The notes below the pieces were generated by a model. It saw only the letters and a list, made by a program, of their open reading frames with translations. It did not search any database and had not been told where the DNA came from. A stretch of DNA of 64,000 nucleotides. Source: Pseudovirgaria hyperparasitica (Eukaryota). Location: the NCBI GenBank assembly GCA_010093815.1, contig ML996567.1. The stretch is one strand, 5' to 3'. Positions 5,846 through 57,655 of this stretch are shown piece after piece. Positions within the stretch are counted from its first letter, which is position 1; every line of letters starts with the position of its first letter. Both the position numbers and the translations under genes were made by a program.

Positions 5846-7632
5846 ATGGTCGAGTGATGTTTATTGCTCCGGGTACATGGGATACTTTAGTGCACTCCTC
5901 ACTCGTACATTGATGGTATGAGGCCTGCCCGACGGGAACCTAAACCACCCACGAGCTGCTCTGAGAGACACTAATTGCACGGATACACCACAGACCCGAC
6001 TTGCCACCATGTTAGTCCCTATCAGGTTCATGGACGCCTCCGTGGGCAAATATTACATAACGATCTGTCTCGGATCATGTGATCCAGTAGCAATCGCGTC
6101 AGAATCGCTCTGGCAGCCAGTGACCCTTTTACGAGCTCCAACTAGACTATTCTATCTCGAGAGTTCGAAGCGGACTTCAATCAACAAGACCGTCGTCTGT
6201 GGCCGATTGCGAGATGAACAACAATTCAACAACGGATTTTGGATCTTTGCACAAAATTTGAACAGCACTGAGACTTTTGCGCATATCCATGGAAGTGCTC
6301 CGGCTCCTACGTGAGAATAACATCCCATATCAACCTGTCGACGAACGGATGTGGCGAATGAACATGCCCTAGGTGCCAGGAGGGAGCGATGGTAAAGGGT
6401 CAACTCCGACCGCATCTGGTGTAATGCGCATCGAAGAACTTTCGAACCGATCAACCAACGGTCGAAGGTATGGATTCGATAACAACAGACAGGAGAAGGA
6501 AAGCCCGTATTCTTGTCTAAGCATTCAACTGGTTCTCAAAAAAGATTTCGGCGGGTCGTAAAAGGATCCGAGCGCGGAAGTGCCGTCATATTTGAAGGAT
6601 CGATTATATCGCACGCTCTTGTGAAATGGTAATCGTTTGTCATCACTCGAGGTTCGCTTGCAGATTTCTGTGACGTCTCACTGCACATTGTATCCAATCG
6701 TTCACTATATTCTAGATTTCTGTCTGAGCTTTGGTACATAGGCACAGTAGCATCTCGTTTCCAATTAATGCAAGACGATTTCGGGTCTCTGCCCTCTAGC
6801 TTCTCGAAAAGTGCGCGAGGATGGGCTTACGCTCAAAAATGGAGAGACACAGTAGCACCCACTTTCCGACTGCCTTGCATGTGTGCCGTCGGTCCCTTGA
6901 AAAGATGAGCGCGTAAGTGGGCCTGTCTCTCGTGTTGGAGAGGCATAGTTGTCCCGATTACCGGAAGAAATCCAACGCATTTTGAGGCTTCTTGCAACGC
7001 GTAGACAATCCGCGCAGCTCTGATACTTGAGGCTCCAGTTTCACGATCATAGAGGCGGATAGAAACTTGCATCTCCTCTCACTTTAGACAGATTGACAAA
7101 GAGGCACTGCAATGTACTTCTGTAGAATAGAAAGGAGGCAAAGGAACACACTATGTGTGGATTCTGCGAGCCGGTTTCGAATTCAAGTGAAAAATTCGAC
7201 TCGGGTTTTCCAGAGGGTTTGCAAGATCTCGAATATATGGACTCGCATAAAGTGCACAATCCAACGCTGGCCGAGCTCACAGTCAATAATCCGGTCTTGC
7301 TATCTTTATGCGCACTAAGCTGATCATGGCCGGGTGCTTCATTGCTACTAGCTCAACGGGAGGGGGGAGTCGCGCCGGCGCCAAAAGCTTTAGCAACGGA
7401 AGCATAAGGCTTTTAGAGGCCGAGATCTCTGGTATGGAGTGGAAGTACAGCTACCCTCGGACTCGCAGTCGGGGAAGTTCTATACGTTGTACAGGGCATG
7501 GGATCGGCTGTCCAGGTCTGGTGACCTCGAAATTCATACTACTTGTATTGATGTCATGGGATGAGACGACATGGTCTAGCAGGAGAGGGGTAGGCTGAAA
7601 TATTGACCGTGCCCAGGATTTCCTAGGCAGAT

Positions 7633-9018
7633 TCAACGCATTGGTCGTTTTTCTTCTGTTCTCACGGGCATTCCAGTGTTTCTGCGCTTCCGAGCTCTTA
7701 TGGCTGGGGAACCCTCTCGATTTTGTGAATGGTTACTAGAAGGGGTTGAAATTTCAGTATCAGGGATGGTAGTCCCTTCGGTCAACTGAGAAATTTCGCG
7801 TTGTGTATCCTCCGGAGCTCTGCACAAGTCAGAATCACGGTACCTCTTCCGTCCTCGAGATGGCGTGCGAGACAATCCATTTGGTGACGGGCTGTGAAAA
7901 TTGTCGTCGTCATCAACATCTCCCTCGGTCCGTGATCTTTTCGTTGGGCTTTTACTGGAACGCTTATTGGACGAACTTCGGGGCTTTCTAGGAGGCAGAG
8001 ACACGTCCGCCTCCTCAAGCTTCATAGTTTGTAGATTCCACTTCCATGCAGTTCTTCCGAGACCATCGTGTTTGAAGAACGTTGCAAGACTGAATACTTT
8101 GATGGCGTATGCGGCGAAAAGATATTGAACACTAATTCCAGAAATCCGGTGCAATGATGTATTCTGATATAATGTCGTTAACTCGCCGGCAGTATCGGGT
8201 CGTATAACATGTAAAACGAGTGACAGGGCTGATGTCGATTGAGAAGGAGATTGATAGATGGGCACTTCCCCGTCGTTGATTGGTGCATGTATGTGTTTGG
8301 GCAAGATGGTCATTTTATCCGAGTCAAGAAGAGTATGGATGTCTGCACGAAGTACGACGACGTTGGCAGGAGAGTTGATGCACAGTTCATTAGCATCAGC
8401 TTCTGCTAGCTTGTATACTTCCATGTTGTTTCTGTCAAACCACTCCAGCAGTCTGCTGTGTATCAAGTGAGATTTCTGTGTTCCCATTTGGTGGCCCGTT
8501 ACTCTACAGCTGATATCTCGATTGAAAACGGAACGCAAGTCGTCATACCGGCCATGCGCGCGATCCGGCTGAGGGGGTATGTAGAGGGACTTCCAATAAT
8601 GTGGCAAACGATCATGAGGAAAGGGCCAGTCGTCAAAAGTTAGAACTATCGGATACATTTCTATATTTCTCAGTGATGGACTTGCCCTGCGAAGTAATTA
8701 CATGCCTTTGTGTGTTACATGGAAGTAATATCGCTCCAAGGTCAGCAGATGCTCTGGGTCATGAGGAACGCGGGTACCATTTGGCTCATTTTCCGTGAAG
8801 AAAGTATCGATGAACTCGTTGCCGGCTAGTATACCGCAAGCCAGACGCGCAGTCTCTAAATGGATGCCAAACGCGCCGTTGTTGCTTTTATCAACTGCGG
8901 GTAGCACGATGAGCGTGTTTCTGGGATAGCAGTAGCCAGGGTGACAGAAATAAACTTTCTTTGGTGATGGAGATTCCCTAAATGAAGCACTGCTCTGTGC
9001 GACACGATATTGAATCAT
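7633..9018 (-). CDS. HNH endonuclease-domain protein (fungal HNH_2 type); exons 8706-9018 and 7633-8660
   Basis: RDISCRVTG..KSHLI..WFDRNNM..INSPANVVVLRADIHTLLD motif; basic, NLS-like C-terminal tail; in-frame join via a GC-AG intron. Confidence 0.75.
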
Positions 9019-9536
9019 GATGAGGGGGGTGGGATGATCAAGACGGTCAAGACGGTCAAGTCCTTCGCAAGGCAGTTCGCGAAGGATGGTGTTGAGGCAG
9101 AAAGTTCACCGCCTGGCAGAACCGAGGCCTAATTTGTGAGGCCTCAGGCAAAGACGGTGGCCACGACGAATGCATTTCCAACAGCAACACCACAATCAGT
9201 CTTCAACTTTAGTATTCGAGTTGCGTTTCACTTAAAACTTCTTCCCTCAGCTACTTGGGCCAATTCTGGCCTAGACTTTGTGGATGTACATTATAAATAG
9301 CTAGAGCCACGTTTTTTCAACTGACTTGCCATTTGCGAGCCGAGCAGGACAAGATTGCTCTCCTCTATCGGAACACCCACATGGTCTACACGGCGGGATG
9401 GTTTTTGATGGCTCTCGTGCAAGCGCTTTTTCGCGTGCTTTCTGCCACTGTGTGGTGGGTTTGGGGCGAGAATAGTTTAGGATGTTGGTCGTTGGGATGC
9501 TGTATTTTGGGGAGGTGGGACTTTCATTGTGATTAC

Positions 9537-10500
9537 CTAGATACTACCAAGTGCTTTGCCCCCGGATATCTCATCAATCTTCATTGCGTCTTTTAGTCCA
9601 CATAGCTCAGACAATCCCCGTGGGCCTTTTTCGCCATAGTTCACTTTGCCATCCGATTTCAGCGCTTTCAGGGCCTCTGTTGACGCCTTCTGTGATGCTT
9701 CAAGTAGCATGAGTGGTACAATCGTCATCCTGAAGCCGAGGTCCTGTGCCTGTCTCATCGACCAGTTCGGCGTCAGTCCGCCCGGCACGAGGTTCAGCAG
9801 CATAGGCGTCTCGCCCATGATCTCACAGACCGCTGTCGCCTGCGCTTCATTCCTGATGCCTTCAAGAAACGCCACATCTGCACCCGCACCGATTGCAGCA
9901 CGCAGCCGCTCGATCGCTTCATCAAAGCCTGGCCCGGCAAGCGCGTCGGTGCGGGCAATGATGATGATATCGCTCTGCGCTCTCGTGCGCGCTTCGACGG
10001 CGGCCTTGATCCGGCTCACGAATTCTTCCTTCGTGACGAGCTCCTTGCCTAGCAGATGGCCGCAGCGCTTCGTCTGGACTTGGTCCTCGAGATGGAATGC
10101 AGCAACGCCGGCTTGGATGTACTGGCTGACGGTCCGCGCGACGGCGATAGGGCCGCCGTAGCCGGTATCTGCGTCGGCGATGAGGGGGATCGAGGGATCG
10201 AGGTTGGCGATGAGAGAGGCATTCGCAATCATGTCAGATGCGGTTGCAAGGCCCAAGTCGGGCCAGCCGATGCGCGAGAGGGAAGTGCCACTGGGGCCAG
10301 GAGGGTTAGTTCTCATCGTTCGACAGGATGAGGTCTGTCACGTACAAACCAGTCATGTACAAAGCGTCGAAACCGACGTTGAGAGCTAGACGAGCTGTGA
10401 AACCATCGTATACCCCTGGTGCTACGACCATCCTGCTCTTATCGTTTAATAGTTCCCGGAGGCGCGTGGAGGCACGCACTGTTGGAGCTTGCGATGCCAT
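9537..10500 (-). CDS. Isocitrate lyase/PEP mutase family C-C lyase (oxaloacetate hydrolase / dimethylmalate lyase-like); intron 10291-10345
   Basis: APGVYDG, YMTGFGTS, IADADTGYGG, HLEDQ..KRCGH catalytic loop, IIARTDA. Confidence 0.88.
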
Positions 10501-11854
10501 GCTTCTAAATGAGTTTGACAGTCTTGATATGAAGATATACTGTTCTCACGAGTCTTGATATATTTACCAAGGTCATTTCTACTATAATGCTTTGTGCGGG
10601 CTTGTCAGAAGTGACGTGCTGTGGCAAGTCAGCTCTACCGAGCTTGGTCTCAAACCTTGGAGCTTTTGATGGAGCTCCAGCTGCTGCATGTCCCGATATC
10701 GGATCATGACGAGGTTCATATGGCGTTGTCAATATGGAACCTGTACATCATGTTGTCCTGCACGATCTCTAGCTTTAGTGATCGGACGCGTGATGGAACG
10801 TTCATTAGGATTGTTTGGGACAAGACTCAAGAGTGAACAGCACGGTTCATTGGCGGTGTTAGCTGCCTCAGGCACGAATTCCAACCCGATTAGACAAGGT
10901 GCAGATGGGTTTACGCTGGCTCCTGTTCATTGCACCTTGTAAACCAAGACAAAAGCAAAGATGCGTGAGTAGATAGTATCAACAAATACGTCAGCTGCGC
11001 ACCTCGTATTTCAACCTCGCCAAACGACTGATGGCTGTCCACCGCACTAACGACGCATATCAAACGCCTTTCGTACTGAGGGCGCGTGTCGGCCCGGCAA
11101 ACACGAGCCACGACGCCACCATTTGGCATTACCACAACTGCTCCAGTCAAGTAATTTTCCTATGAGCGGCAGCAGTCAGCCAGGATCCGGGGGTGTGCCG
11201 AATGCGACCGAATCCTCCGAGTCAAGCCCAAAGTCCGTCCTAGCGGCCTCCGGACGGACCGCTCGCGTACAATCAAGGTTTATTTCGACGACATGACATG
11301 ACATGGCATGGGAAACACGCTCTTCAGCTATCCACGGTCAAGCATGGCACTCCGGCGAACGCGTTCTAGACGGATGCGAGTGCTGGGTTCGAGTGTAAGC
11401 GAGGATGAGCATGTCGCAAGGATGCGCGGGCGTGCCGAATCTGATGCCCTGGTCGTGCTGGATATGGACTGATTCAGGATAGTCAGGGTCGAGGATGGAT
11501 GCGGATATGGCTGCAAGTCATGGCGTGTCCATCGTATTGGCAATTGCCTACCGATATGGTGGCGCTGTCTCGTTACGGGCGAGTCAGGGGTTCAGGGAGT
11601 GGATACGGCAGGGCTGAATCGCGTGCTGTATACGGTTTCCTGTCACGCTGTAAGCGGCTTGCTTGTCTGCTTTCGCGAACGACCGGTTACCTGGTTTGTC
11701 CAATATGGCGTTCCCGGTTTGGGTGCCGCTCGTTTGGGAATCCTCTGCTGATGCAGGATGCATGTTCTCCACTGTAGATACACAGCACTACACGTCAGAC
11801 AGCCCTGTGGAGCGGCTGACAAGTCCCAGCCTTGCCAAACGCCTCTCAATATCC

Positions 11855-12165
11855 TTCGACCACATACAGAAGATTCTAGCGAGCATCATAGTCCCAAAAT
11901 CTCCACACCATGTCTCCACCATGGTCCCGCCAGAGAGGACAGACTAATGGCACCGAGTCGTAAACCACATAGACAATCAAACAAGATCCGCAAATGCAAT
12001 CCCCATCTACCTATCCCTCCACCTTTCGACCACATACAGAATGTTCTAGCGAGCATGATAATCCCAAAACTCTCCACTCCCCGTCTCCACTCCCCACCAT
12101 AGTCTCGCCCCAGACAAACAAGAACACCGAATCATGAACCGTGTAGACAATCAACCAAAATCCCA
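11855..12165. repeat. Diverged ~170 bp tandem duplication
   Basis: TTCGACCACATACAGAA..TTCTAGCGAGCAT at 11855 and 12025; shared CACCGA..TAGACAATCAA block further into both copies. Confidence 0.75.
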
Positions 12166-12958
12166 GGAACACTCCATTCCTACCACTTTCACTCATTCTC
12201 CGAGCAAGTCTAGACCCCGAGCTGCCCCATCCATCCATCTTGACCCCGCCCACTCAACACGTGGCCATCAGTCCACCAGCCCGAAATTCCCACAAGCTGC
12301 ATCCCACTCCACAGTTCCCCCCTTGCAGTACAGGGGCATACAGTACGGATATGTTACAATTACAGATATAATACAGACTGGAGGAGAGGGGAGGGGGAGG
12401 TCTGCGTTCTTGTACAGTAGGAGGGTCAGGGGATAGGGTCAGGGATGTAGTGTTTGAAGCATGTGTATCTTGTGGCGCTGGTGGATAATGAGTTTGGGAA
12501 ATTGGTGTTGAGGGTTGTGTATGTGTGGTGCGGTGTTGTTTGCGGTTGAGTTTGAGAAGATGGGGGAGTATAGCATAATTGAATGAGTATGGATCAACCT
12601 GTGGATCTGAACATCACTGGTATGTTGAGGATCGTATGTCGCAATGTTTAGATATGGACCTCGTCCGTCTTGGACTTTGGAGAGATGTCACGAATGAAGC
12701 CGTAGTCTTGGTGAGAAATAAAGTCGGCAGAGACTATAGCACCGATATGATTGATGATAGCTCAAATATGTGCATTTTTCATGTTGTGATCATTATATAT
12801 ATTATTTTCAGGAAGAATCTCGTTTCGCGACCGTAACCCATAATCTCATGAACCCCAAATCCCCGTCTATAGTGTGTGCGTGTATTACAAGGAGACCCGA
12901 TTCCCGGCATCACCATGCCAAAACAAAACGACGCAAGAGCACCAAGTAAAGCCCTCTT

Positions 12959-21711: not shown

Positions 21712-23446
21712 AAAAGGCTGATGATCGAGTTCTGCATTTTTTTTCAGCTCGTGTTGTACAGTGCTCGCTGTACATTGTTGCAGCAGGTTGCATGGGTTTG
21801 CTACATCAGGGTCTGTCTGATGATAGCTAGATGGACAAACGCGGCGTACATTCAGGGCGTACATGGGACGAGATTATTGCTGGGGTGTAACGATGTATGA
21901 GATATAGACCGATTATAGCATGGTGTTCTTTTAGTGACTGACTGATTGACTGCATGTAATTTGCATATTGATATGGGTATATACATATATATCCATATAC
22001 GTATATGAGTGTACGTATGTACCTATCTATATATATGCACGTCGAATGTGGTGTTTCGAATTGATATATGCACTACCCCCACCGCTACTGCTGATGACAC
22101 CTGAGCGGATAGAATAGACAGATAGACAGGTAGATAAGACAGATATCGGTCAACATCTAGCCCAGAAGGCTGCATGGCAGTGCATGAAGTAGTAGTGGTG
22201 GTGGGCTCGATGGATGTTGATAAGGATGATGAGCGTTAGAGACGTGGTGTGACATTACAGTGCATGTTGGTTGGTGGTGCAAGCTGGAGTATACGAGTAA
22301 ACATGCATTCATTCATTCATCCCGGGAGCGTTTCGGTGTGACGTTGGGATAAGACGTGGTAAGGTATTGAGGCGGTGCTGTACTGTGGTCCAGGAATGTT
22401 AAATACTGGGGTGTGCTGTGGTATACCGTATCATACTATGGTATGCGGTACTTGTGCTATGATATACTGCATATCATCCCATACCGACATTGATAATGCG
22501 TAATTACTGTACCCACTCGTCAGTTGCATTTTCGTACCGTCATCGGTCCTTCTGGAGCCCTTCTATGCAGGCTGGCAGATAGACAAACAGGCAGGTAAAC
22601 TAATCACTCGTGTTCTTCCAATATGATGTGCATATATATCAGCGAGGGGCAGTGAAAGCACATATCAGCACGAGTCAGAGTCAGAGTGAGAGTCAGAGGA
22701 TGGATGGGCGGGAGGAGCCATGATAATACGAGGTGGCGTTCATCCGGGGGGGCTTTTGGTGTACGGCAGCCCAAATGTGGTATTGGGACCCCTCCCCCCC
22801 CCTGGCCAAGACCATGACCACGACTCATCCCTGCCGCCATGTTGCTCCCACGCACTACACATGCACCCGCTGCAACGTCTTCTATTGATTTTTGCCCTTC
22901 ACTGCATTTTCTCACCACCAATGTCCTATCCCAATACAATCTCAATCCTAACTCCAACTCGACGCCTCCATGGGGCTACCACCCGTCAGCCCAACTAGCC
23001 AAGTGCTTCATACTTTCCATGAGCCTCTACACACTCGTGTGTTGTGCCGCTAATAGCCCTATGCCTCATCTGGTCAATGTATTCACTTGCTCGGCCGACA
23101 CTTCATGGGGCATGAGAGAGCCTCCTCACCGACTATGGATGTTGTCCGTCTCGGCCTTTCAGCCCTCTTTTGCGCCTCGCTGACAGAATGGAGAACTCCA
23201 GATCTGTCTTTTCTGAATCGGTACTGCTGACGTCTACCGGACCTGACTGCCATCACTTGACCTGGACGCATCGTATTGTAGCACTGCCATGTTGTTCTTC
23301 GTGTGTGTGTTTTTCACTCCATTAAATATGTCGCTGTCCCTGCTTGTTTGGCCCCCTCTCCAGCCCGTCGTTGTCTCTCCCTGACCTTGACTTCGGTTGC
23401 TGTCTTGCCTCCATTCAGGCACAATAGGTCGATAGCTTAGCCAAGG

Positions 23447-26400
23447 ATGACGAGCCTATTCTCAATCTGCCTGTTCCTGTCTGCTTCTTGGGTGAGTGAG
23501 CTCGCTTCCGGTCCTGTCTATGCACGTCAACCTGACTGAGCCCCTGGCTGACATTTATCTCTTGGCGATATAGTTTGCTGCTCCCTCCAGTGCTAGATCC
23601 CTGCCGTGGGCAAGCAATGTACATCTTGCCGCACGCGACTTGACGCCTGCTTCGAAGCTCCCTGGTAACTGGACATATCAAGGATGCTATTCGTGTGTTT
23701 CTCTATCTATCCAGATTATGTGCTTTGTTGACGTGCTGATCCTCATCTTGCAGTGATAGCACGGGGTCCCGCACCCTGAGCAATGGCGGCTACAATAGCG
23801 GAAACCAAATGACCGGCGAGGTGTGTATCTCGTACTGTAGCCAGAACGGCTTCATCTATGCTGGAACAGAGTATGCCGGGGAGTGCTGTATGTTGATCTC
23901 GTCACACTTTTGTTGTATTAAAGGCGCCCCAATGCTGGATCATGGCTTTGTCGATCCATACTACAATCACTGACCATGTTGCTCCTCTGATTTAGACTGC
24001 GGAGCTCGTCTCTCGAGCACAGCGACCGAGAGTCCGGATTCGGACTGTAACATGGCCTGTAATGGTGATGCGGCGCAGGCATGTGGTGGTCCAGGCCGTC
24101 TTACAGTATATTGGAACGGACAGTCCCCTGCTGCGGATCCTATCGTCAATCCAGGTCCAGCTGGATGGAAGTCTTTGGGCTGTTATGAGTACGTGAAATT
24201 CAATCCTGCCATGATACACCCCCTATATCACACATCTCGATCAACCCCAGTCTCCAATTGCTTGGCACTATTGTACATACTAACAAAAGGGGCAGAGATG
24301 GCGGTTCCCGCACGCTCTCCCAGGGCGTTGCCGTACAGGGAGATTTGACCGTCGCCAAGTGTACGGCTGCGTGCAAGGCGGGCAAATACAAGTATGCTGG
24401 GGTCGAATACTCGTACGAATGCTGTGAGTCGGTCCAAACGACCTAGACCGTCCCGGAAGCCGTCTAATGTCTGCTAGATTGCGGTAACACAATCGACAAC
24501 GGCCATGGCCCCAAGTCTGATGGCTGTACGATGACATGCAAGGGGAACAGTACCGAGTTTTGTGGTGGTGCGAACCGCATCAACCTGTACGGACCGCCAG
24601 ACGCCGTTCAGTCGTCTGCACCAAATTCTCAACCTTCCCCGACTGTTGATCCGGGCACCGCCGTTGATCGGCCAAACACTGATGCTCCAGTACCTGCTCA
24701 GACCACACCGTCTGAGGTTGATGTAGCCACCACGCCTACTGGTGCTGTTGCCACGGCGGCACCGAGAGAGACTGGCTCGGCTAACCAGCTGCCGCAAGGC
24801 TGGACCTATGCAGGCTGCTATGTAGATGGCCAATATGGCCGTATTCTGGTGCATGGACCGCCCGATAGCGACTCTTTGACCATCAATGGGTGTGTGTCGA
24901 CATGCGTGCAGATGGGATACTCTGTTGCAGGGATGGAATACTCCAGGCAGTGCTTCTGTGACAACTACATCCGTAATGGCGCGCTCAACACTACGGACTC
25001 GGACTGTAGCATGGCTTGTTCCGGGGCTGCTGACCAGAAGTGCGGTGGACCGGACAGAGTGAGTGTGTATGGTCAAGCGCCGGTGAAGATCATTCAGCGG
25101 CCCGAACAGCAGACGGATAACTTGCCTGGTAACTTCAAGTATATTGGCTGTCGCACGTGGGTTACCCTGGGGCGTTTCCACGACGATACTTTGATATACT
25201 AATTCATGACAGGGACGACTCTGGTGGTACAAGGACATTACCGTACAAAGCTGTCTACGCAAACACCAACAATGCCACCACATGCCTGACCTCATGCATG
25301 ACGTTCGGCTACAACGCGGGCGGCATGGAGTACGGCGAGGAGTGCTACTGCGGCGACCCAGACATGGTCCCGGCGGGAACCACCTTTGTCGATGATTCCG
25401 AGTGCAACACTCCTTGTCCCGGGAATCCGGAAGCGTTCTGCGGCGCCGGAAATCGCATGTCCTACTACGAATATCAGGGCGATCAGCTCCAGGTCTGGAA
25501 CTACCCCTCTGGCAATGATGCTGGAAGGTACGAGTTTCTCATCTACGCGCCGACTGTTGCCCTCATCACCACTTTGGGGGTCAATGGGAAGGTTACTTTC
25601 CAGGAGAAGTTCGGTACTCAGTACAATGGCACTGGCTCATACGAGTTTGACCCCTTTTACGAGGACAATTACGATGCGGCCTGGCGCGAGATGATTGGTC
25701 TTCGGACGGACATTTTCTGCGCAGCCGGTCTCGTTCTTCCGGATAGAGCTGGTCGACAAGTCACCTTTGGCGGCTGGGCAGGCACGTCGACCATGGGCAT
25801 CCGCCTCTACTGGCCAGATGGTGCGCCTGGCGAGCAGAGTGTCAACGACTGGGAGGAAAACGCCGACGAGCTTCAACTACAGAACGGTCGCTGGTACCCC
25901 AGTGCCATGCAAATGGCCAACGGCTCCATCCTCATCGTCGGTGGCGAGACAGGCTCCAACGGACCTGCTGTCCCTACCATCGAAATCGTGCCTCGCGTCG
26001 GCCCTGTACTTACCATGGACTGGCTACAGCGAACCGACCCCCTGAACCTCTACCCCTTCCTCGTCGTCCTCCCAGGCGGCGGCATCTTCGTCGGCTACTA
26101 CAACGAAGCCCGCATCCTCGACGAAAACACCATGGCCACCATCAAAACCCTCCCCAACATCCCCGGCGCCGTCAACAACCCCCTCGGCGGCCGCACATAT
26201 CCGCTCGAAGGCACCCTCATGATCTTCCCCCAGCACGCTCCCTACACCGACCCCCTCGAAGTCCTCATCTGCGGCGGCTCAACCCCCGGCTACCCAGTCC
26301 CACTCGACAACTGCGTCTCCACCCAGCCCGAAGCCGCAAACCCGCAATGGACTATCGAGCGCATGCCCAGCAAGCGCGTCCTCTCCTGCATGACCGCCCT

Positions 26401-27097
26401 GCCGGACGGCACTTTCCTCATCCTCAACGGCGCACACTTCGGCGTCGCGGGCTTCGGCCTTGCCTCCGACCCGAACTTCAACGCCCTGCTCTACGACCCC
26501 CGGAAACCCGTCAATCAACGTATCAGTGTCATGGCAAATACCACCATCCCCCGCCTCTACCACAGCGAAGCCCTCCTCCTCCCCGACGGCCGCGTCCTCG
26601 TTTCAGGCTCCAACCCAGACGATGGACCCGACGCAGTCTCGACAAACGAATACCGCGTCGAGGTCTTCCTCCCACCGTACCTGCTCTCCGGCCTCCCCCG
26701 CCCCACCTTCACCCTCCCCTCCTCACTCTCCCCATCATCCTCCACAGCAGCAGTAAACACAACCGCTATCCCCTACGCCTCCACATTCACACTCACCCTC
26801 ACATCCGCACTCTCCTCCCCGCTCTCCAGCCTCCGCATCTCCCTCCTCGGCACTACTAGTAATACTCACGGCAATACGTTTGGCCAACGCACGTTTTTCC
26901 CCGAGTTTAGCTGTCGGGGAAACACGTGTACGGTTACGGCGCCGCCGGATGCGCATGTTTGTCCGCCCGGGTGGTTTATGGTGTTTGTGCTTGATGGGCA
27001 GGTGCCGAGTGTGGGGCAGTTTGTGAGGATTGGCGGGGATGTTGGGGGGCTGGGAGACTGGCCGCGAGTGGAGGGGTTTGTGGTGCCTGGGGTTTGA
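23447..27097 (+). CDS. Secreted copper radical oxidase AA5_1 (glyoxal oxidase-like) with four N-terminal WSC domains; 7 exons
   Basis: Signal peptide MTSLFSICLFLSASWFAAPSSA; four WSC repeats (GCY..AGxEY..EC.C..C.G..CGG); active-site motifs FCAAG, GRWYP, RLYHS, NTHG. Confidence 0.9.
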
Positions 27098-27451
27098 TTT
27101 CGGAACGAAGGAGGGAGGGGATAGTGGGGGGGTGGAGGGGGAGAGGGTGGTTTGAAGTGCTTGTTAGGTATACGAGTGATGTTCTTCGTTGAGAGGGTGG
27201 GGGGATATATGTATAGCCGTGATATGAGTCTATGATTTTTTTGTGCTTCTACTACCTCCTTCGTACTTCCCTGCTTCTGCCACGTCCTCTCTGGCCCTTG
27301 ACAACTATGCTTATGAACACGCCCTGCCTGACGTGCATGTGGCTGTATATATTGCTCTAGCCCCAGCTAGAGAAGATGTAGATGGTATAACTCGTCAATA
27401 AAGATCAGGCCTATCTACATATCCATCTAGACGTTATCCACAAGACACTCC

Positions 27452-29847
27452 CTACAACAACTTCGACACCCCGCCCGGCGCCCACTCCTCATACCGCCTC
27501 CTCATATCCGCCGTAATCATCCTCGGCACATCCCCCAACGCCTTCTCAAAATGCCTCATCCCCACCCTCGGCATCTCCCCCTTCTCCCCACCCTCCCACT
27601 CCGCCGCCGCCTCCTCCGCCGCAACATCGCAGATCCGCACTACTTCCGCGCCGGAACATCCCTCTGTGCGCTCCGCCAGCACATCGACGTCGACGTCCTG
27701 CTCAAGCTCTCTGCGACGGTTGCGCAAGGTGAAGATCTCGCGGCGGGCGGGGGTGGTCGGGGGCCCGACGTATAGAATCGTGTCTATGCGGCCAGGGCGC
27801 AGGAGGGCGGGGTCGAGGGCCTCGGGGGCGTTAGTAGCTGCGATGACGAGGACGTTGCTGAGGGTTTCGATGCCGTCCATTTCGTTGAGGAGGGTGGTGA
27901 CGACGTTGAGGCCTGGAGTGTGTATGTTGTTGTTGCGGGAGGAGGCGGCGATGGCGTCGATTTCGTCGAAGAAGATGACGCTGGGGGAGGCGGCGCGGGC
28001 GCGGGTGAAGAGGGCGCGGATGGCGCGTTCGGATTCGCCGACGTACATGTTTAGGAGCTCGGCGCCTTTGACGGCGAGGAAGTTGAGGCCTGCTGAGGAG
28101 GCGACGGCTTGGGCGGTGAGGGTCTTGGAGCAGCCTGGGGGACCGTAGAGGAGGATGCCTTTTTGCGGGGTGAGGGAGAGGTGTTTGATTAGGGCTGGAT
28201 ACTGTGTTTCGGGGTGGGTTTGTTAGTTTTCGGTTTGGGGGTGGGGAGGAAAAAAGGGGGGAGGAGGATTTGTTTACGTACTTTGTAGGGACGCACGGTG
28301 ACTTTGTACATTGCTTCTTTGACGGCTTCGGCGCCGCCGATGTCTTCCCAGCGGACTTTGGGGGTTTCGAGGAATACTTCTTTCATGGCGCTGGGGCGCA
28401 CTTCGTGGAGTGCTGAGGTGAAGTCTTGTTCGGTTAAGATGTCGGTCGAGATGTGTGCTGGGGGTTGGTCGGTGTCTGGGATGGGCTCGGAAGGGGGTGC
28501 GGCGTCGACTCGCTCTTCGGCCTTCTCGAGTGCGACTATGCATAGTTCGACGAGGTCTCGGCCTACGTATCCGTGGGTGCGTTCGCCGATGCGCTCGCAG
28601 AGCGGGTCTTGTTTAGTGGTGTCGAGGATCGATTTGAGGATACTGCCACGCGCCCTGGCATCAGGAACTGGTATCTCGATGACTTTGCTGAACGTGTCGT
28701 AGGACCTCAGGGACTTGTCGACGGCCTGGAGACTGCGCGCAGCTGCCACTACAAGCGTCCGCTCTCCCTTCAAAGCACGTAACCGAGACGCCAGACTGTC
28801 AAGCAAATCTCTTCGAGCAGACTCTGCGTCTCCAAAGACGGTTTCCCAGTGATCTATGGTGACGAGACTTGGTTGGACCTGCTCAGCTTTTGCGAATATC
28901 TCTTTCAGCTTGGCATGTGCATCCTTTGCGGTCGTGCCTAGAGTTGCCGGGCTGATCTCGAAGACGTGCGGTCCGAAGGCTGCTGCGAGGCCTTGGATGG
29001 TCATGGTCTTGCCTGTTCCCTCAGGGCCATGAAGGAGGATACCGGCGCCGCGTCGGCATTTTGGTGGCCTCGTCCAGTTTGTCTTCGTCTTATTGTCATC
29101 TATCATGCGAGAAATGGACTTTGTCAAGATGTCCAATTGCTGCTCAAGACCACCAATGGTTGCAAAGTCAGGCTTGGGCGCAGCTTTCAATACTATTTGC
29201 GGACATTCCTCTACGAGCGAATTGACATCACCAGGCGTGTCTAGAACGATCTTCGTTCTGTGGTCGACTTTGTATAAAGTACTAGACGTGGCTGCTGGCT
29301 CAATAGCATGTATCTGCAACTGACGCTTCCTAGACTTGATCTTCGACACCACATCGATTGTGTATGGAGAGCACGCACTCGAAGCAGCAACTGACAGCGT
29401 CAGTCATGGAGAAGCCAAAAGATCTACGCATCTATACATACACAACAAAATATGGATACAGAACAACGCCTGTTCAAGGTCCGCAAAATCCTCTAGCAAA
29501 GACCCACGTTCGCTGATATCTGTAGACCTAAGGTACACCGTGTCTGCATGTATCCTACCATCAGCGCCCTTTTCTATGCTGACCTTTTCCTGGAAAGAGA
29601 GGCCGTAAAAGTTCTTGAAGGATTCTGTGACCTTCGCTATAGGCTTTGCATTATTTGCATTGGGGCTTTTATACAGCCAAGCAAATCCGTATACTGGCTT
29701 TCCACTGGCGTCTTTCAGTATGCATAGCTCGCCATTCTTCAAGCCGCACTGCGTCAGGCTTGAGCTAGTGAGATATATTCGAAAAGCTGCTTCCAGCGAG
29801 TTCGAGTCGCTGCCTCCTTCGTAGGGTCTGACTGTGAAGTCAGGCAT
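27452..29847 (-). CDS. AFG2: Type II AAA+ ATPase Afg2/Drg1 (SPATA5-like); 3 exons
   Basis: D1 GILLHGPEGTGKT; linker VRPSAMKEVFLETPKVRWEDIGG; D2 GILLYGPPGCSKTL, IFFDEID, ALLRPGRID. Confidence 0.82.
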
Positions 29848-30061
29848 TCTGCGACGTGTGCTGTCCTGCTATGGTGCACTATTTGATTCCCAAGAAGAGA
29901 AAGTATAAAATTGCAATTGGAAATTATTAGCAAAATCATGATATGTGTCACCGCTCCGTATAAATAGGAGCTCGGTTTATGATTACGTAATTAATATTCC
30001 CTTAGGCTTCCGTGATGCGGTGACTCCAGTCCTTCTGGATATAATTGCCCGACACCTCTAC

Positions 30062-31757
30062 ATGAAGCGCTCACTGTGCCTGCCGCCCGACTTTCTGATA
30101 CCCGCCTTTGCGACTCCATCTCAAAATTTATTCGCGAGATGCTCGCACAACGTTGCCCACCGACGATATGCCTCTGATGGCAAATCCAATTCTTACCCGG
30201 TGAAACCCGACACAGCGAGCCAAACGCCTCTAAGGATCTCTCGAAGCACATCACTTAAAGGTTCAGGCTTCTCAGCAAAATGGCCGAGAGATACCAGTGG
30301 AAATGTTCCAATCAGGTTCTTTCCTGCTCTACCTGGTGCAAGACAAGCACGAGCTTCACCTGCACATTTCAGAAGAATAAAACTTGAATCGGCGCGAGAC
30401 AGTGATCTCAAACAGCCCGAGCGCAGTACTGAAATCGCAAGATCAGGTAAAGCGAACTCCAAGACGAATTCTTTATTGAACGAGCTGTTTCCAGAGGTAG
30501 CGCAAAACAAGCCGGACGCCGATGATACACTTCGGAATTCAACGACAGCATATGCGCCCCCTCGAAGGGCACCTGAAATCACCTTTGACAAAGGGATCCA
30601 CAATGATGAAAAGTCAAAGTCAACTTCGCTCCTGGATGAGCTATTCCCAAAAACAAGACTCAGTAAAATGAGAGACCTGAAAACACTTGGCCACATTCCG
30701 GTCCCTCGACTTCATATTTCAACTGCGCGTGCTGGCGAGACTCGTAGTCCTGACCCGTCGATATCTGCCGAGGACAAGTATGCTCCCGGTGGGCAAAGTC
30801 GCAAGGAGGACATACGTGCACAATACGAGTTCAATCGACAGGAATTCTCGGTTTTGATGCTGAAGGGTGCCTCTCGAAACCTGAGCGAGGATGACTTTAG
30901 AAGAATTATTCCTCGAGGTAAGCACATTGCTGAGTGGCCAATTGGATCCGACATTCAAAGAGGTAAGTCTTGTAATTGCTTCAACAGCTTGAATAAGCGT
31001 GCTCATGTATATCCCAGTCATTCCATTGCGCAATACATGGTCATTAGAGCGGACTGGGTCGTATTGCATCGTTTTTGCGAACAAAAGGGCTGCCATGGAG
31101 TACAGTGCACACGCGCACAAAGCAGCAAGGCTAAGTTCTATGGCAGCGCCGACTTCGCTCTTGGGAGCAATTCCAGCTGCGCCCGGATGCGAAGAGGATG
31201 GCATTGATTTGTATGCTTTGAGGCAATCCTTCACTCTAGCGCCCGACGGAAACGACTTCTCGCTCGAATATCTGGAACGTCCGTACCTTGGCCACATGTA
31301 CCATTTGTTAGCCAACGGCGGTTACTGCCCAATAGTCGAACACAATGCAGCAGCTCCATCCTCATCGTCTAAACTAGACAGTCCGCCGCCTAAGACAAAA
31401 GTCCTGCTGACCGCACATGGAGGATCTACCATGGCAAAAAGAAGCCTTATCGCTGCGATTAGAGCCGACGGAAAAGAGCGCGGAGAGCTTTGGAATCTCA
31501 AACATTGGCTTTATGGCATACAGAGGTTGCAAGACGTGCTATACACAGCTGCAAGGAACGGCTATATGCGCTGTGATGAAGTCTCCCTGGAACAACTAGA
31601 GGAGCAAACATACAATCGATGGATACTGGACTTTGAGGATCCTGTGAGTGCGAGACAATTTGTACAGACATGGCATGGCAGACAGCTGAGCCCTCCGGAG
31701 CATCATGATAAGAATTACATGCATCCCGACCTTGTCGTGACTGAAGTTCTCTGGTAG
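30062..31757 (+). CDS. Fungal hypothetical protein, possibly mitochondrial (intron 30963-31017)
   Basis: Two long ORFs joined in frame by GTAAGT..CCCAG; Arg/Ser-rich presequence-like N-terminus; ASRNLSEDDFRRIIPRGKHI and ARQFVQTWHGR blocks look protein-like. Confidence 0.7.
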
Positions 31758-31989
31758 GGTTTGTAGAGTATGTACACTACAAATAGACTTGGCTTCTTCA
31801 TTTGGCGATCGCATATCTACACACCAGAAGCTAGACTGAAGAATGCGCGTTGAGCATCCCAGAGGGTAATGACGTACTTCAGCGAAGCGCTTGAGGTTAC
31901 TCGGCTGGAAATGGTATCCTGATTCAATGACGGCCTGCTTTTCCCGGAGTTCAAAGGTGCTACTACCAGGGCATTTACAAAGCTGCATT

Positions 31990-33009
31990 CTATGCATCCA
32001 TCTGCCAGGCATATTCCAATTCTTGTCTGTTGACCTTCTTGTTCTTTGCCGCAAAATATTCCTTTTCAAAACCATTACTCCTATCGACGCCATCCCACCG
32101 ATATCCAGGTCGAATCCCGTATCGATTAGGTGCTGCAGCACCCTTGTACAACGGCTTACCCGTAACGCTTCGGCCCTCTTTCTTCTTAACCAGAAAGCCT
32201 GCCGCCGGATCGTTCCACCGATCCTTGTCTTTCATCTTATCGTTCAATTCCTCGTCATCAGCATATCTCGATAATGTCATATACTTTGCATCCTTGAGCT
32301 GTTGTTTCCGTGCCGCCTGTTCAGCGAGCTGAACATCTCCTTTCGCCATTCGTACCTCCGCGACTTTCTTCCGCTCCTCTTCCTCTGCCTTCTTACGCGC
32401 CTCCGCACGCTTCATTGCCACATTTATAATTCGCCCCGATGCGTCACGATATATTGTTTCATGCTCCTTGCCTGACCGTGCAGCACTTGCCGCACCATAC
32501 GCCTCTCGTTCTTCCCGCTCTTTGATTTTGATGGCGGCTTCGACCTGCGCGGCTGTCTGTAGACCGGCGAAGGCACCAGACTCCATCTTCATAATGTTTT
32601 CTGAATCTTCGACCGTCGGCGCTTCATCTTCAGCACCTGCGCGGACCGAGTTTTCGGCCGCGGCAGATGCAATGATGGCGTCTGCGGCAGCTTGCTCGGC
32701 ATTGGATGGCGCTGCACTCCCGACAGTTTTCCAGCCGGACTTCTTGAGCTTGCGGCGTTCTATGCTCTGGCCAGATACTACGGCAACATCAGCATTATAC
32801 TGGCTGGTAGACCTATGAGACCTACTTGTTGTCGGTCCATCGTCATCTTCTTCGTTTTGCTTGCCATTCCGCCAACTGTTGTCCTCATCCTCTATGATGA
32901 GTCCTTCTGTGGGAGCGGCGGTACCCTTGCGCTTCCTCTTCTTGCTCTTCTTTTCCGATCTATCATCCGCATTCAGATAGTTCTTTGCGAGATAGTCTGC
33001 GAGCGACAT
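31990..33009 (-). CDS. BUD13: RES complex splicing factor Bud13/Cwc26 (probable intron 32778-32825)
   Basis: MSLADYLAKNY, ETIYRDASGR, RWNDPAAGFL, PNRYGIRPGYRWDGVDRSNGFE. Confidence 0.92.
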   Translation of the reverse strand: MSLADYLAKNYLNADDRSEKKSKKRKRKGTAAPTEGLIIEDEDNSWRNGKQNEEDDDGPTTSRSHRSTSQYNADVAVVSGQSIERRKLKKSGWKTVGSAAPSNAEQAAADAIIASAAAENSVRAGAEDEAPTVEDSENIMKMESGAFAGLQTAAQVEAAIKIKEREEREAYGAASAARSGKEHETIYRDASGRIINVAMKRAEARKKAEEEERKKVAEVRMAKGDVQLAEQAARKQQLKDAKYMTLSRYADDEELNDKMKDKDRWNDPAAGFLVKKKEGRSVTGKPLYKGAAAPNRYGIRPGYRWDGVDRSNGFEKEYFAAKNKKVNRQELEYAWQMDA

Positions 33010-33221
33010 CTTGTGTTGACTGGAAGTGTTGTAGTGTTTTGACTAACCTTGAGCCCGACTTGTGACGTTTAAGTTGCGGATATGGGCGATGCGCGACTGG
33101 CTAAGGAGCAGGCATTTTCGCGCTCCAACTTTCTTGTGACTCCAACATCAATTTCACTTTACCCCTCCTCGATTGTCGACCCAGAAGTACGCCGTTCACA
33201 AACTCGACACACGTCTCAGAT

Positions 33222-34409
33222 ATGCCTCCAAAGAAGCCTACTGCCGCAACTCAACCCTCTTCAAAGCCAGACATGGACAATCTCCTCTCCTATACGATCC
33301 GCACTCAAACTCTCCTCACACAGCTGTTGACCTCTGTGACGAATCCCCCGACGTCCATTCCTACTCTTCCTCCAGATCAGCGTGTCCTGAATCCTCTCAC
33401 TATTCTCCGCGACTCAGGGAAGCTCCTTCACGCTCACACCACCAAGCTGTCCCTCATGATCATGAACAAACCGTTCGGCGCAAAGTCAATGACGGCCGAA
33501 CTGAAGGCATGCGTGGAAAAGTGCATTATGGGCATGATGGGTGCAGTGGACATATTGTCTTGCTCATGGCATCCGATTTCCCCAAACTCCGATAATCCGG
33601 GTAGTGCAGACGTCAGCGATCAGAGCATCTGGGGAGATATGATGATTAGGGAAGCACGCACCCGGGTCGCGCGCGTAATCAGAGAGATGTTGGTCATGGT
33701 ACAAGAGCTACGTACGCTCACCGAGACAGAAGCTGGGATCTTAGACTCTCCTAGCTCGGACGCAGTCTCTCAACGCGACAACTTATCCTCAACTGGCGTT
33801 GTATGGGAAGCATGCGACTCGCTCGTCGCATTAGAGAAGCTTAGTCTGCCCGGTCTCGCCGTAATGAAAGCAACTCAATATCACCAAACACTGAAAGATG
33901 CTTTGGCAGAGCTGAAAGAGTGGGCGGAAGAAGTCGACGGGGACGAGGCCGACTTCTCCGATGAAGGATTTTCAGACGAAGACGATGAGCTAGACGCTAT
34001 ATTCGGCGCATCAAAGAGATTACCCAAAAACGATACTGCCCTACGTGAGCAGGTAGAACGCACAAACAAAAAGTTATCTTCAATCGCTGTGTTATACCAA
34101 GCTTTAATCAAGCGTCGACTGAAACCATTCATATTCACATTTCCACCAAGTGCAGCGACAGAGCATACCTTGTTACGTCGCACAAAACGATTAAACCAGA
34201 TCATAGATGAGCTGAAGAGTATCCCCGACGAAGTCGATGAATTGGCTGGGGCTCTGTATGAGCTGGACGGCGGGTCTGCAGAGGCAAGGCTGAAAAACTG
34301 TATCGATATGGCGTCGGAAGCTGCTGCTCTTGCGAAGCTAAATTGGGACGGACAGGAGGACGAGTTTACTGTATGGAGTGGAAAATGGAAAGGCAGTGTA
34401 GAGTCATGA
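33222..34409 (+). CDS. GCIP / cyclin-D1-binding protein 1-like protein
   Basis: Intact 395-aa ORF with AHTTKLSL, STGVVWEACD, an acidic linker and VDELAGALYE. Confidence 0.65.
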   Translation: MPPKKPTAATQPSSKPDMDNLLSYTIRTQTLLTQLLTSVTNPPTSIPTLPPDQRVLNPLTILRDSGKLLHAHTTKLSLMIMNKPFGAKSMTAELKACVEKCIMGMMGAVDILSCSWHPISPNSDNPGSADVSDQSIWGDMMIREARTRVARVIREMLVMVQELRTLTETEAGILDSPSSDAVSQRDNLSSTGVVWEACDSLVALEKLSLPGLAVMKATQYHQTLKDALAELKEWAEEVDGDEADFSDEGFSDEDDELDAIFGASKRLPKNDTALREQVERTNKKLSSIAVLYQALIKRRLKPFIFTFPPSAATEHTLLRRTKRLNQIIDELKSIPDEVDELAGALYELDGGSAEARLKNCIDMASEAAALAKLNWDGQEDEFTVWSGKWKGSVES

Positions 34410-35041
34410 TGGCAGAATATTGCGCACTCCAGCGACCATTTTCTGACCTATGAGTCTCATCTGTCACATAGAAAATGGAGGCACAGGGACGCTTGACAAT
34501 GCGTTGTCGCCGGGTTAACAACTCTCATACGGCCACTGCTTGTCAACCGCATACGTGCAGAGAGCCACGCTCTTATGAGACTCTGTCTACGACTGCGCGA
34601 CCTCCGCACCCGTTCAAAGCTTTAGGAAACCCCTGTCGAAAATGGTCAGGCCTCTAGCCAAGGTGCAGCAGATCTCCGCTTGGGCGCATAAAGCAGATTC
34701 CGCGCTGGTAGATATATCAAGCTGATACAGTAAATAATTCAAGTCAGTGTGAAGGCGAGTCAAAAATGTTATGTTCAATCGAAGAAATAGGGGAGCAGTA
34801 TATTCCCGATCTAACTATATACTACCTAGTATCCATGACAGATCCTCCTCAAGCAACAGGGGTCGGCGCCCGCACTATGTATGACGTGGGCGTGGATTGC
34901 GCCAAGGGCGTCCGACAGCTCGCTGGATTCTTGCTTCAGCGCACATGCAGCATTCTCTCTTCAAATTCCTGGATATCCCTATATGGACGAGCTCCATACC
35001 CTTTGATCTCTATAACCTATATTCCTTAGAGTTGGCTCAGC

Positions 35042-54850: not shown

Positions 54851-55868
54851 ATGGCTTCAGCACCGCCAAAGCTCATCGGCAACCCTATGGCCACAGTCGA
54901 GCAATTAGAAACCTCAGCCTCTCAAATTGATGGCATACCAAAGGAGCTCGAAGACTCCATTCACTTTGCTGGCGCCCGTCTTACCCAATTAGCAGGCATT
55001 CTCCTGCGACTTCCTCAAGACATCATCGCCATCGCAATCGTCAACTACACAAGATTCTGGCTCGGCCCAGAAGGAGGCAGCTTGAAGAAGTACGGAGCCA
55101 AGGTCAGACAGAGCAGTCACAACAACAACCATCCCACCGCCTCCTAGCTGACCCTCACACCAGGACATCTCCATCGCATCCCTCTACGTCACCGCCAAAC
55201 TCTCCGCCTACCCCAGATCACCCCGCAGCGTCATAAACGTATACGCCTACTTTGACGCCCACGAGACCACCTTCGAGCACCACGCCCCCAACTCCCCCAA
55301 CCCCCTCGACCCACAAACCTACTTTGTCTCCGAAGGCACATACCAAGCCCGCCGCCTCGCGCTCATGCGCACCGAAGCCCTCCTCCTCCGCACCCTCGGC
55401 TTCACCACCGACACCGCCCTGCCCTACGCCCTGGCCATCACATACATGCAGACGCTCGACGCCTTCGCCGACCACGCCGCCGGCTCAGCACTGACGAAGC
55501 GCGTGCTGGCACACCTCAACAGCGCCCTCTTCAGCCCGCAAAAGCTGTACCTGACGCATCAGCCGGCGGCGCTGGCCACGGCGGCGATCTACCTGGCGGG
55601 CCATGAGCGGGAGATGAAGCTGGCTGGGGAGGACTGGTGGGAGGTGTTTGATGTGGGGAGGGAGGAGCTGGGGTTTCTCGTCTTTTCGCTGAATAGTCAG
55701 AATGGGTTTGCGGAGAGGGAGGTGGAGAGGTGGGCGGGGAGGAAGGTGCCGTTGACGGTGCTGGAGGTGGAGAGGGAGATGGGCGTGGGCGTGGGCATGG
55801 GCGTGGGCATGGGCGTGGGCATGGGCGTGGGCATGGGCGTGGGCATGGGCGTGGGCATGGAGGTATAG
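54851..55868 (+). CDS. Transcriptional cyclin (cyclin L-like); intron 55103-55163
   Basis: LTQLAGILLRLPQ, LYVTAKL, EALLLRTLGF..LPY, ALATAAIYLA, WWEVFDV. Confidence 0.8.
55779..55860 (+). repeat. Coding 12-nt minisatellite (ATGGGCGTGGGC)n
   Basis: About 6.5 units encoding (MGVG)n just before the cyclin stop codon. Confidence 0.95.
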
Positions 55869-56432
55869 ATCTGTAAAGGATCAATGGTTGTGTGTTGTTG
55901 ATGGCCTGGATTTTTGTGATACCCCTATAGAGCTTTTTATGGTTCTTTACTGCGAACCAATTGATAGAGAGCGCATTTTTACCTGCGATTGTTCTGCTTG
56001 ATGGGGCGTCTTTGTGGGTATATATATACCAGGGTAGCCTTTACCAATCTGATCTAACTTCTACTTATACTAATCTGAATATCTATCTATCGCAGCGACT
56101 CGCATGCCCTCTCCTAGGTCATCAGTTCAGTCTTACCTACACATGAAGCCTAAGGCCTCCACTAATCCCTCGACCCCCGAACTTTACCCACCAAAGTCTT
56201 GGCATACACGCAACGCACGGGGCTCCACTTACACGCACACCGTGCACACAAGCGAGACCACACACGCACTAGCTTCTTTCTCTATCTACCCGCAAAAACT
56301 ACACCTTTCTCTCACCACAACGCCCAACGCCCAACGCCAACAACGTCAACGACAAAGACAACGATCGTATTCGACCCTCAACCCTCGACCCTCGACGGAA
56401 CGAAGATCTAAAGCAAAAATTCAATCACAATC

Positions 56433-57245
56433 ATGGCCCACGATACCGTCTACTACTCGCGCCCGCGCACGTATGGAAAGGCGGCGCTTGGTTGGTATGT
56501 TGTTTGACCTTTTTTTTATCTCTCTTTGTGTTTGTTTCGATTTTGTTTTGGTTTCGATTTGCTTGAGTTGCGTTGTCTGTGTTTGGGTGGGTGTGTTTGG
56601 GTGGAAGAGGAGGAGTTGGAGGGTTATGAGGAAGAGAATAGATAGGGATGTTTGCATGGAGAAGAAGATTGGAGAGGACGAGATGAGGGAGAAGAGGAGG
56701 GATGGATGGATGGGTGGAGAATAGGACAGAGGGTGGATGAGGAGTTGAGGAAGAGAGAGGGAGAAGATGAGGCTGAGAATTATGAGGAGAGATAGGGAGA
56801 GAGAGGATGAGAGAAGATATGGGAGAGAGAAGGATACGATGGCTTCGCATTCGCTCGTCGCTGGACATGCACACACCCATCCATCCGCCCACACACAACA
56901 TTCTTGTCTCTCCTTCTCTCTCTCTCTCCCTCCCGGCATGCTCTTCTCACTACATCCTGCTCCACACTCATGCTCCATTCCCCCTTCCATCTCCCTTTTT
57001 TTTCCCTTTTCGCAAACCTCCAGCCGCGCACCCACGCTGACAACTCCCGTGCACAGTGTCGTCACCGGCGACCGGAAGAAATCGGGTATCATCCGCAAAT
57101 ACGGCCTGAACATGAGCCGACAGGCCTTCCGCGAGCACGCAAAGGAGATTGGGTTTGTCAAGGTGAGTTCTTGGATCTGTTGTCGGTGGTGCAGCGAGGG
57201 GAGAGGAGCGGTGTGCTGATCGTGTCTGGGTTGTAGTACCGTTAA
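56433..57245 (+). CDS. RPS29: 40S ribosomal protein S29/uS14, cysteine-depleted variant; exons 56433-56494, 57057-57162, 57237-57245 (58 aa)
   Basis: Spliced product [73 protein letters not shown] and GTGAGT..GCTGAT..TAG introns. Confidence 0.9.
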
Positions 57246-57655
57246 AGGATGGACGAGTGAGGGGATGAGCGGGTTGATGGATGGATGGATGGATGATATG
57301 GAGATAAGGGCATGAATGGGAAGGGGATGGAGGATGTAGGGTTATGCGTGGTGGGTGAGGTGCGCGTTCGGCACTTGTTCGTACATACGTACGTACATGC
57401 AGAATCCACGATGTAGCCATGCAATCGCCACGATGTTCCTAAATCAAAAGCTCCGACTTCATCCATAAACCCAATACCGCTCCTGATGCGCAGATTCAAA
57501 ATTTCATTTCATCTCATTTCATGTCATCAGCACTCATCCATGCATACACACATACACATCATTCATCTCGTCTCGTCCATGCATACAAACATACACTTCA
57601 TTCATCTCATCCCCACCTAACCCACCACTCCCCCAACTCCCTCAACACTCCCCAA

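Follow-up and report, generated by a model that had tools for sequence, protein, structure and literature searches.

The 64,000-nucleotide (nt) stretch of Pseudovirgaria hyperparasitica contig ML996567.1 analysed here (the window) carries an intact, expressed gene for ribosomal protein uS14 (S29) without its zinc site. The fungus is a Dothideomycete of the order Acrospermales. The protein belongs to a family of cysteine (Cys)-poor S29 proteins of 58 amino acids (aa), hereafter C-minus, which in relatives of this fungus stands beside the canonical four-Cys S29 of 56 aa, hereafter C+. The promoters of C-minus genes, taken as a family, carry an element that resembles the zinc-response (ZR) motif of the activator ZafA and that is specific to them. 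The best explanation of these findings, and one towards which we lean on balance, is that C-minus is a zinc-free uS14 paralogue under a low-zinc switch that would be driven by ZafA/Zap1.

An intact, expressed uS14 without a zinc site

The gene was rebuilt from the window sequence as three exons with a coding sequence (CDS) of 177 nt and a product of 58 aa (Table 1). Its spliced mRNA was seen in three of three public runs (X1, X2 and X3, from two studies), with transcript contigs reaching from about 56328 to 57649. The joint of intron 1 (56493/57056, 562 nt skipped, GT..AG) was present in contigs of all three runs, and that of intron 2 (57160/57235, 74 nt skipped) in contigs of X1 and X2, with no other letters at either joint. 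Because the contigs join exactly across the introns, spliced mRNA exists and the gene model is right; the original prediction, made from the letters of the window, of a cleanly spliced 58-aa product with intact frame and splice signals was confirmed. Runs X2 and X3 are of unrecorded kind and were taken as transcript-bearing by their intron skipping, which was also seen in the two adjacent genes and applied to every one of the four introns in the region compared. Word depth over the exons was 4,619–12,545 in X2 and 23,159–34,751 in X3, with 147–288 and 313–767 for the neighbouring genes; as contig depth cannot rank genes, these figures were not used for or against constitutive expression.

The product is letter-for-letter identical to database protein P0006, named by NCBI 'ribosomal protein S14 [Pseudovirgaria hyperparasitica]', which carries PF00253 (PF00253.28) and is a member of the uS14/S29e family; exon 2 alone scored 26.6 bits against PF00253, where the cut-off is 27. 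A phmmer search of solved structures matched 58 distinct uS14, S29 or S14-type-Z sequences at E ≤ 0.001 (best 5.4e-19, over residues 1–58), and the open reading frame (ORF) is therefore not a chance one. The two best solved matches were 9axt_Aj, at the top with E 5.4e-19 (ligand positions C..T / S..S), and 3j80_d (C..G / D..S). 9AXT and 9AXV are Schizosaccharomyces pombe 80S ribosomes (PMC11461667), while 3J80 and 3J81 contain Kluyveromyces lactis 40S subunits (PMC4217140).

In HMMER alignments to solved uS14 chains, the zinc-ligand positions of the product read C21, T24, S41 and A44. Three of the four Cys are gone, as had been predicted from the reading CVVT...SRQA, and the product has no CxxC...CxxC zinc ribbon of the kind borne by archaeal, eukaryotic and short bacterial forms. 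All the scaffold motifs that the prediction quoted as kept are present, and the insertion of about two residues that it placed after the first knuckle appears as a two-residue gap in every alignment to a 56-aa uS14. At 58 aa, the product is not an insertion-free 56-aa uS14 of the S. pombe/K. lactis type. An AlphaFold2 model of the product had low confidence (mean predicted local distance difference test score 63.8). When this low-confidence model was used as a Foldseek query, all 50 listed matches in the PDB were uS14 chains, matched weakly (E ≥ 2e-3, template modelling score about 0.55).

C-minus is a paralogue of the canonical four-Cys protein

A search with exon 2 gave 41 candidates, all of them Cys-poor, from Pyrenophora, Alternaria, Bipolaris, Plenodomus, Epicoccum, Coniothyrium, Hortaea, Ramularia, Venturia and others. 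A profile built from five full-length C-minus members then retrieved 465 proteins at E ≤ 1e-8, and classes were counted on the best 120. Sixty combined an eight-residue loop with two ligand Cys at most, 57 were canonical (CCCC, six-residue loop) and three were Cys-poor proteins of yeast type, with a six-residue loop and no insertion; the representative search found no further class. By source names, both classes occurred in at least 13 named species: Parastagonospora nodorum, Pyrenophora tritici-repentis, Paraphaeosphaeria sporulosa, P. minitans, Saccharata proteae, Zopfia rhizophila, Hortaea werneckii, Salinomyces thailandicus, Lasiodiplodia hormozganensis, Ramularia collo-cygni, Venturia inaequalis, Pleomassaria siparia and Neofusicoccum parvum. 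Exophiala spinifera and a Xylariales species also have the Cys-poor form, in each case on contigs of megabase size. We conclude that the C-minus family is conserved across Dothideomycetes and is present in at least one Chaetothyriales and at least one Xylariales genome. At family level it is a true paralogue beside the four-Cys S29, and at class level the family does not represent a degenerate sole copy common to the lineage.

Among 24 C-minus members the ligand positions read CTSA in 17, CNSA in three, CTSV in two, and CNCA and CQGA in one each. Within one species, C-minus and C+ are about 63–74% identical (34–40 of 54 aligned residues). The C-minus protein of V. inaequalis (P0035/P0047) retains the third ligand Cys (C..N / C..A) and could be an intermediate state, and in Z. 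rhizophila (P0082) even the first ligand Cys is replaced, by Tyr. Intronless S29 genes of other eukaryotes in metagenome loci (L045/L046, L048 and L068/L076/L080) are without two to four of the ligand Cys, and their first loop is longer; it seems that the uS14 zinc site has been lost repeatedly, and not in fungi alone.

Origin by duplication and purifying selection

Across 80 metagenome loci, intron 1 splits the first Cys codon as TG|T and intron 2 follows GFxK in both classes. These identical intron positions indicate that the four-Cys gene was duplicated at the DNA level. In two divergent C-minus lineages (L014, L016, L017, L021, L028–L032 and L038) the frame continues from GFVK or GWEK to two residues and a stop; since it is uninterrupted, intron 2 has been lost there.

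The median ratio of non-synonymous to synonymous substitution rates (dN/dS) was 0.135 for 24 distinct C-minus CDS and 0.114 for 22 distinct C+ CDS, rough values because synonymous sites are near saturation. The proportion of non-synonymous differences (pN) was 0.152 for C-minus as compared with 0.080 for C+, and mean pairwise identity in the same nine species was 0.759 as compared with 0.905. C-minus is under purifying selection and is evolving about twice as fast as C+. Codon usage also differed: AAG made up 0.67 of Lys codons in C-minus and 1.00 in C+ (p 3e-5), and C-ending codons 0.74 and 0.93 of the two-fold sets (p 8.5e-7), a weaker bias that is expected of C-minus if C+ is the bulk housekeeping gene. 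A tree of 59 proteins over 56 columns resolved a single split, which set all C+ apart (Shimodaira–Hasegawa-like approximate likelihood ratio test 98); this split rests partly on columns of the trait itself, and the tree gives neither a date nor a count of duplications or losses.

A promoter element specific to C-minus orthologues

Promoters were taken as the 800 nt upstream of the ATG and near-duplicates were removed, leaving 20 C-minus promoters (the window included) and 17 of C+. They were scanned with the 15-nt ZafA ZR consensus from Aspergillus, DYYVYCARGGTVYYY (PMC6070888), at no more than two mismatches. Of the 20 C-minus promoters, 15 had a match no more than 300 nt from the ATG; of the 17 C+ promoters, none did (Fisher 3.1e-6, a p-value that overstates independence because the promoters are related by descent), against a background in the same loci of 0.257 per kilobase (kb), or 0.074 per promoter. 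The C-minus sites read [AG]CCATCAAGGT[AT]CT, have 0–2 mismatches to the ZafA 15-mer and often form an inverted pair about 50–60 nt apart; this C-minus promoter element is the one meant by the shorthand CATCAAGGT.

The element also emerged from a hypothesis-free comparison of words, in which ATCAAGGT came top (13/20 C-minus, 0/17 C+). The form CATCA[AC]GGT was likewise present in 13 of the 20 C-minus and none of the 17 C+ promoters, with five matches in the remaining 221.6 kb. Pleosporales-like loci carry the element, as do two divergent lineages (L014/L038 and L016/L021/L028). ACCATCAAGGT is a single mismatch away from ACCYYNAAGGT, which PMC6070888 quotes as the element of yeast Zap1. Only C-minus orthologues have this kind of promoter element.

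C+ promoters have common words of their own that are absent from C-minus: CAGCGAC, CGACGAC, TAGCGCG, TCGCTTA and, at -9, ACCGCAA. In the C+ loci L047–L079, ACCGCAA stands closest to the ATG (-9), CAGCGACGAC occupies about -125 to -160, and TAGCGCG and CTAAGCGA lie farther out, between about -200 and -250. These conserved words may be elements of the ribosomal-protein regulon of Dothideomycetes. Separately, the end of exon 2 (the GF[VI]K codons and the GT donor; 57154–57168 in the window, and C+ loci L053, L059 and L073) itself makes CAAGGT, and motif scans should leave it out because of the spurious ZR-like matches that it produces within the gene.

A proposed zinc-sparing switch and its alternatives

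In the zinc-sparing switch that we propose, a DNA-level duplicate of the canonical four-Cys gene would have lost three zinc ligands and gained the two-residue, Lys-rich insertion at the first knuckle. With zinc plentiful, the canonical C+ copy would supply the ribosomes. With zinc scarce, a ZafA/Zap1-type activator would bind the element upstream of the C-minus gene, and the zinc-free protein then made would fill the position of uS14 in the heads of new 40S subunits. Assembly of these could continue without that zinc, and one zinc would be spared per ribosome. We infer ZafA binding, induction by low zinc, incorporation into 40S subunits and continued use of the switch in P. hyperparasitica. 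The wider proposal is that many Dothideomycetes and some Chaetothyriales and Xylariales have a dedicated zinc-free uS14, switched on by a ZafA/Zap1 activator to give 40S subunits without that zinc, and that they are in this respect convergent with bacteria; to our minds it stands evenly poised between true and false.

The original prediction had seen in the window gene a specialized paralogue for zinc-independent 40S subunits. This is partly supported: at family level both copies are present in 13 relatives and a ZafA-type element lies on C-minus only. The window's own promoter lacks the family element, and for that reason zinc control, for which the family makes a good case, is weakly supported for the window gene. 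The prediction's further statement, that such a strategy was not known to have been characterized for fungal cytosolic ribosomes, agrees with the literature searched, where no eukaryotic precedent was met. Within its coverage, which left out subscription journals and supplementary tables, no eukaryotic Cys-less ribosomal paralogue under zinc control was described. The main text of a paper on zinc starvation in Fonsecaea makes no mention of ribosomal proteins, and no ZafA-dependent, zinc-related expression of these genes was found in the literature on these fungi.

Several points weigh against the switch. The word ATCAAGGT fails Bonferroni correction over 10,529 words. In four C-minus promoters CACGGT replaces CAAGGT at the same place, and it has been argued that ZafA could bind less well when a purine of the core is changed to a pyrimidine (PMC6070888). 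The 20 C-minus promoters are kin by descent and fall by eye into about 12 similarity groups, about nine of them with the canonical core and most of them Pleosporales-like. The ZR label comes from an Aspergillus consensus, and in Dothideomycetes a ZafA-type protein is a putative binding factor for the element. In the window, the family element, searched as CCATCAAGGTAC, has no match at three or fewer mismatches in the intergenic region (about 55869–56432). The one site with a CARGGT core within about 1.2 kb upstream (56025–56039) is of a kind that is expected by chance in about 8–14% of such regions and is within chance given the nine two-mismatch sites across the window; it lies inside a low-depth contig that continues from the upstream gene. 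The C+-type word CAGCGAC, present once at -340, is also at chance level. No C+ protein of Pseudovirgaria was seen among the 120 of 411 C+ clusters listed, nor in the 10 C+ clusters opened (15 of 76 members visible in the largest), a non-observation that is uninformative because it covers the best 120 of 411 clusters. Finally, ligand loss can be neutral in an ordinary housekeeping uS14, as in S. pombe and K. lactis.

Several of these points are what would be expected if the Pseudovirgaria C-minus protein were an ordinary constitutive uS14, whether as the only copy or as one of two equal copies, in which ligand loss is tolerated and any ancestral zinc control has been lost. Its promoter lacks the family element and has a lone ZR-like site at chance expectation, a one-Cys protein is the ribosomal uS14 of the solved S. 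pombe and K. lactis structures, a C+ protein was not seen within the limits just given, and spliced mRNA was present in every run. We nevertheless consider this explanation unlikely, though well short of negligible, since both copies have been kept in 13 named relatives, and a promoter element of their own and a weaker codon bias set C-minus orthologues apart. A specialization for some purpose other than zinc is less probable again and would surprise us. C-minus would then be a thiol-free, oxidation-resistant uS14 or have an extraribosomal role, and the element would belong to another transcription factor, which would suit both a ZafA label that is putative in these fungi and the CACGGT promoters. 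Oxidation of CxxC ribosomal proteins has been linked to zinc release (PMC13090322), so a Cys-poor form would also be redox-insensitive. However, the ZafA 15-mer is matched with 0–2 mismatches in 15 of the 20 promoters, at one mismatch from the Zap1 element, the residues lost are precisely the zinc ligands, and the scaffold that contacts rRNA is strongly conserved, which points to a role in the ribosome.

The loss of conserved ligands, the faster evolution and the unusually long, low-complexity intron 1 might also be read as marks of a decaying duplicate, a pseudogene in the making, or of an annotation artefact. This reading is scarcely credible and was rejected: frame and splice sites are intact, spliced transcripts exist, dN/dS is about 0.13 over 24 diverged CDS and the 58-aa form is kept across many genera. 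The original prediction had argued against decay from the frame and splice signals, and rightly so. If the zinc-sparing switch is real, it would offer a concrete example of eukaryotic ribosomes whose composition depends on conditions, and would bear on the tolerance of zinc restriction by plant-associated and rock-inhabiting fungi.

Features of the window locus

Table 1. Coordinates of the C-minus S29 gene and its upstream region in the window.
Feature	Position	Strand	Remarks
ZafA-ZR-like site	56025..56039	+	Core CAGGGT, two mismatches; 403 nt upstream of the ATG; sole one in the 565-nt intergenic region; weak candidate
5' untranslated region, minimum extent	56328..56432	+	Spliced contig X1 record 1 begins at 56328, preceded by loose letters that resemble adapter; 56377–56494 also covered by X2 record 8
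Exon 1	56433..56494	+	ATG, residues 1–20 and first two bases (TG) of the Cys21 codon
Intron 1	56495..57056	+	562 nt, phase 2, GTATGT..CAG; Cys21 codon split
Exon 2	57057..57162	+	Residue 21 (last base) to 56
T24	57064..57066	+	Exon 2
Insertion loop G25–G31	57067..57087	+	Exon 2
S41	57115..57117	+	Exon 2
A44	57124..57126	+	Exon 2
Intron 2	57163..57236	+	74 nt, GTGAGT..TAG, after the GFVK codons
Exon 3, coding part	57237..57245	+	TAC CGT TAA: Tyr57, Arg58, stop
3' untranslated region, as far as the spliced contig reaches	57246..57649	+	X2 record 10 covers 57235–57649

Intron 1 is the longest among 19 modelled Cys-poor loci, the other 18 having first introns of 50–231 nt. It contains a GA-rich tract (about 56600–56840) followed by a TC-rich tract (56903–56933), and the two could pair as a long hairpin. 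An Rfam scan of the intron returned no family at threshold and no snoRNA; only sub-threshold rows for microRNA precursors were obtained, at 17–27 bits as compared with cut-offs of 60–96, on the GA/TC-rich part.

The window carries only one S29-like gene, and no zinc transporter gene lies within its 64 kb. Comparison of neighbouring genes in the window and 10 C-minus loci revealed no conservation and no zinc genes, except beside L025. There an ORF of the eukaryotic CXXC zinc-binding family (L025:2784-3395, - strand; PF05907, E 8e-18) lies directly downstream of the C-minus S29; it was not present in the other loci examined. In the window, the 3' end of the upstream cyclin-like ORF contains a 12-nt tandem repeat, TGGGCATGGGCG (55780–55860, 6.8 copies, 98% matches), which encodes a Met/Gly/Val repeat directly before the stop.

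Comparison with known systems

The canonical fungal RPS29, that is, the C+ protein of the same Dothideomycetes, has the same intron positions as C-minus. It differs in its four Cys, in having no insertion, and in its stronger codon bias, slower evolution and other promoter words.

Eukaryotic uS14 has been described as retaining CxxC motifs (PMC13090322), and the original prediction had taken it to bind zinc normally through four Cys. The one-Cys uS14 of the solved S. pombe and K. lactis ribosomes departs from this generalization. These two proteins are like the window protein in being fungal and cytosolic and in keeping only the first ligand Cys; they are unlike it in having 56 aa and no insertion. 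Each is, as far as is known, the product of the only S29 gene of its genome, and no paralogue switch or zinc element is known for either. Their presence in solved ribosomes indicates that the uS14 zinc site is dispensable for a working 40S subunit. The tree of 59 proteins could not tell whether their ligand losses and those of C-minus are independent.

As compared with the ZafA regulon of Aspergillus fumigatus and the Zap1 regulon of Saccharomyces cerevisiae, the C-minus element fits the ZR consensus and its essential CARGGT core, and lies at the distance from the ATG at which ZR motifs act (PMC6070888). In the main text of that paper the word 'ribosomal' occurs once. For Aspergillus, only the four-Cys form was present among the matches listed (P0146).

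The swapping of zinc-ribbon ribosomal proteins for zinc-free paralogues is the textbook bacterial response to zinc starvation. A paper of 2001 reportedly described how ribosomal proteins of bacteria have repeatedly lost their zinc ribbons. In bacteria, C-minus S14 far exceeds the short zinc form in length. The bacterial S14 C+/C- switch and the Zur-regulated alternative ribosomal proteins (PMC13090322, PMC5912738, PMC5007448, PMC13343924) include S14 of Bacillus subtilis, the mycobacterial alternative ribosomal protein operon and the L31/L36 pairs. They resemble the fungal family in that the protein is uS14 with PF00253 (in the S14 case), in that ligand-less and zinc-ribbon copies occur in one genome, and in that the ligand-less copy is linked to the site of a zinc-limitation regulator. 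The fungal protein differs in being a eukaryotic cytosolic 40S protein that is only two residues longer than C+ and keeps one Cys, and in its control, which is predicted to act through an activator-type (ZafA/Zap1) element, not a Zur repressor box. If the proposed switch is true, fungi would have evolved the same zinc-sparing solution independently, and the Zur-controlled C-minus ribosomal proteins of bacteria would have in C-minus S29 their first cytosolic counterpart in eukaryotes, wired to an activator rather than to a repressor.

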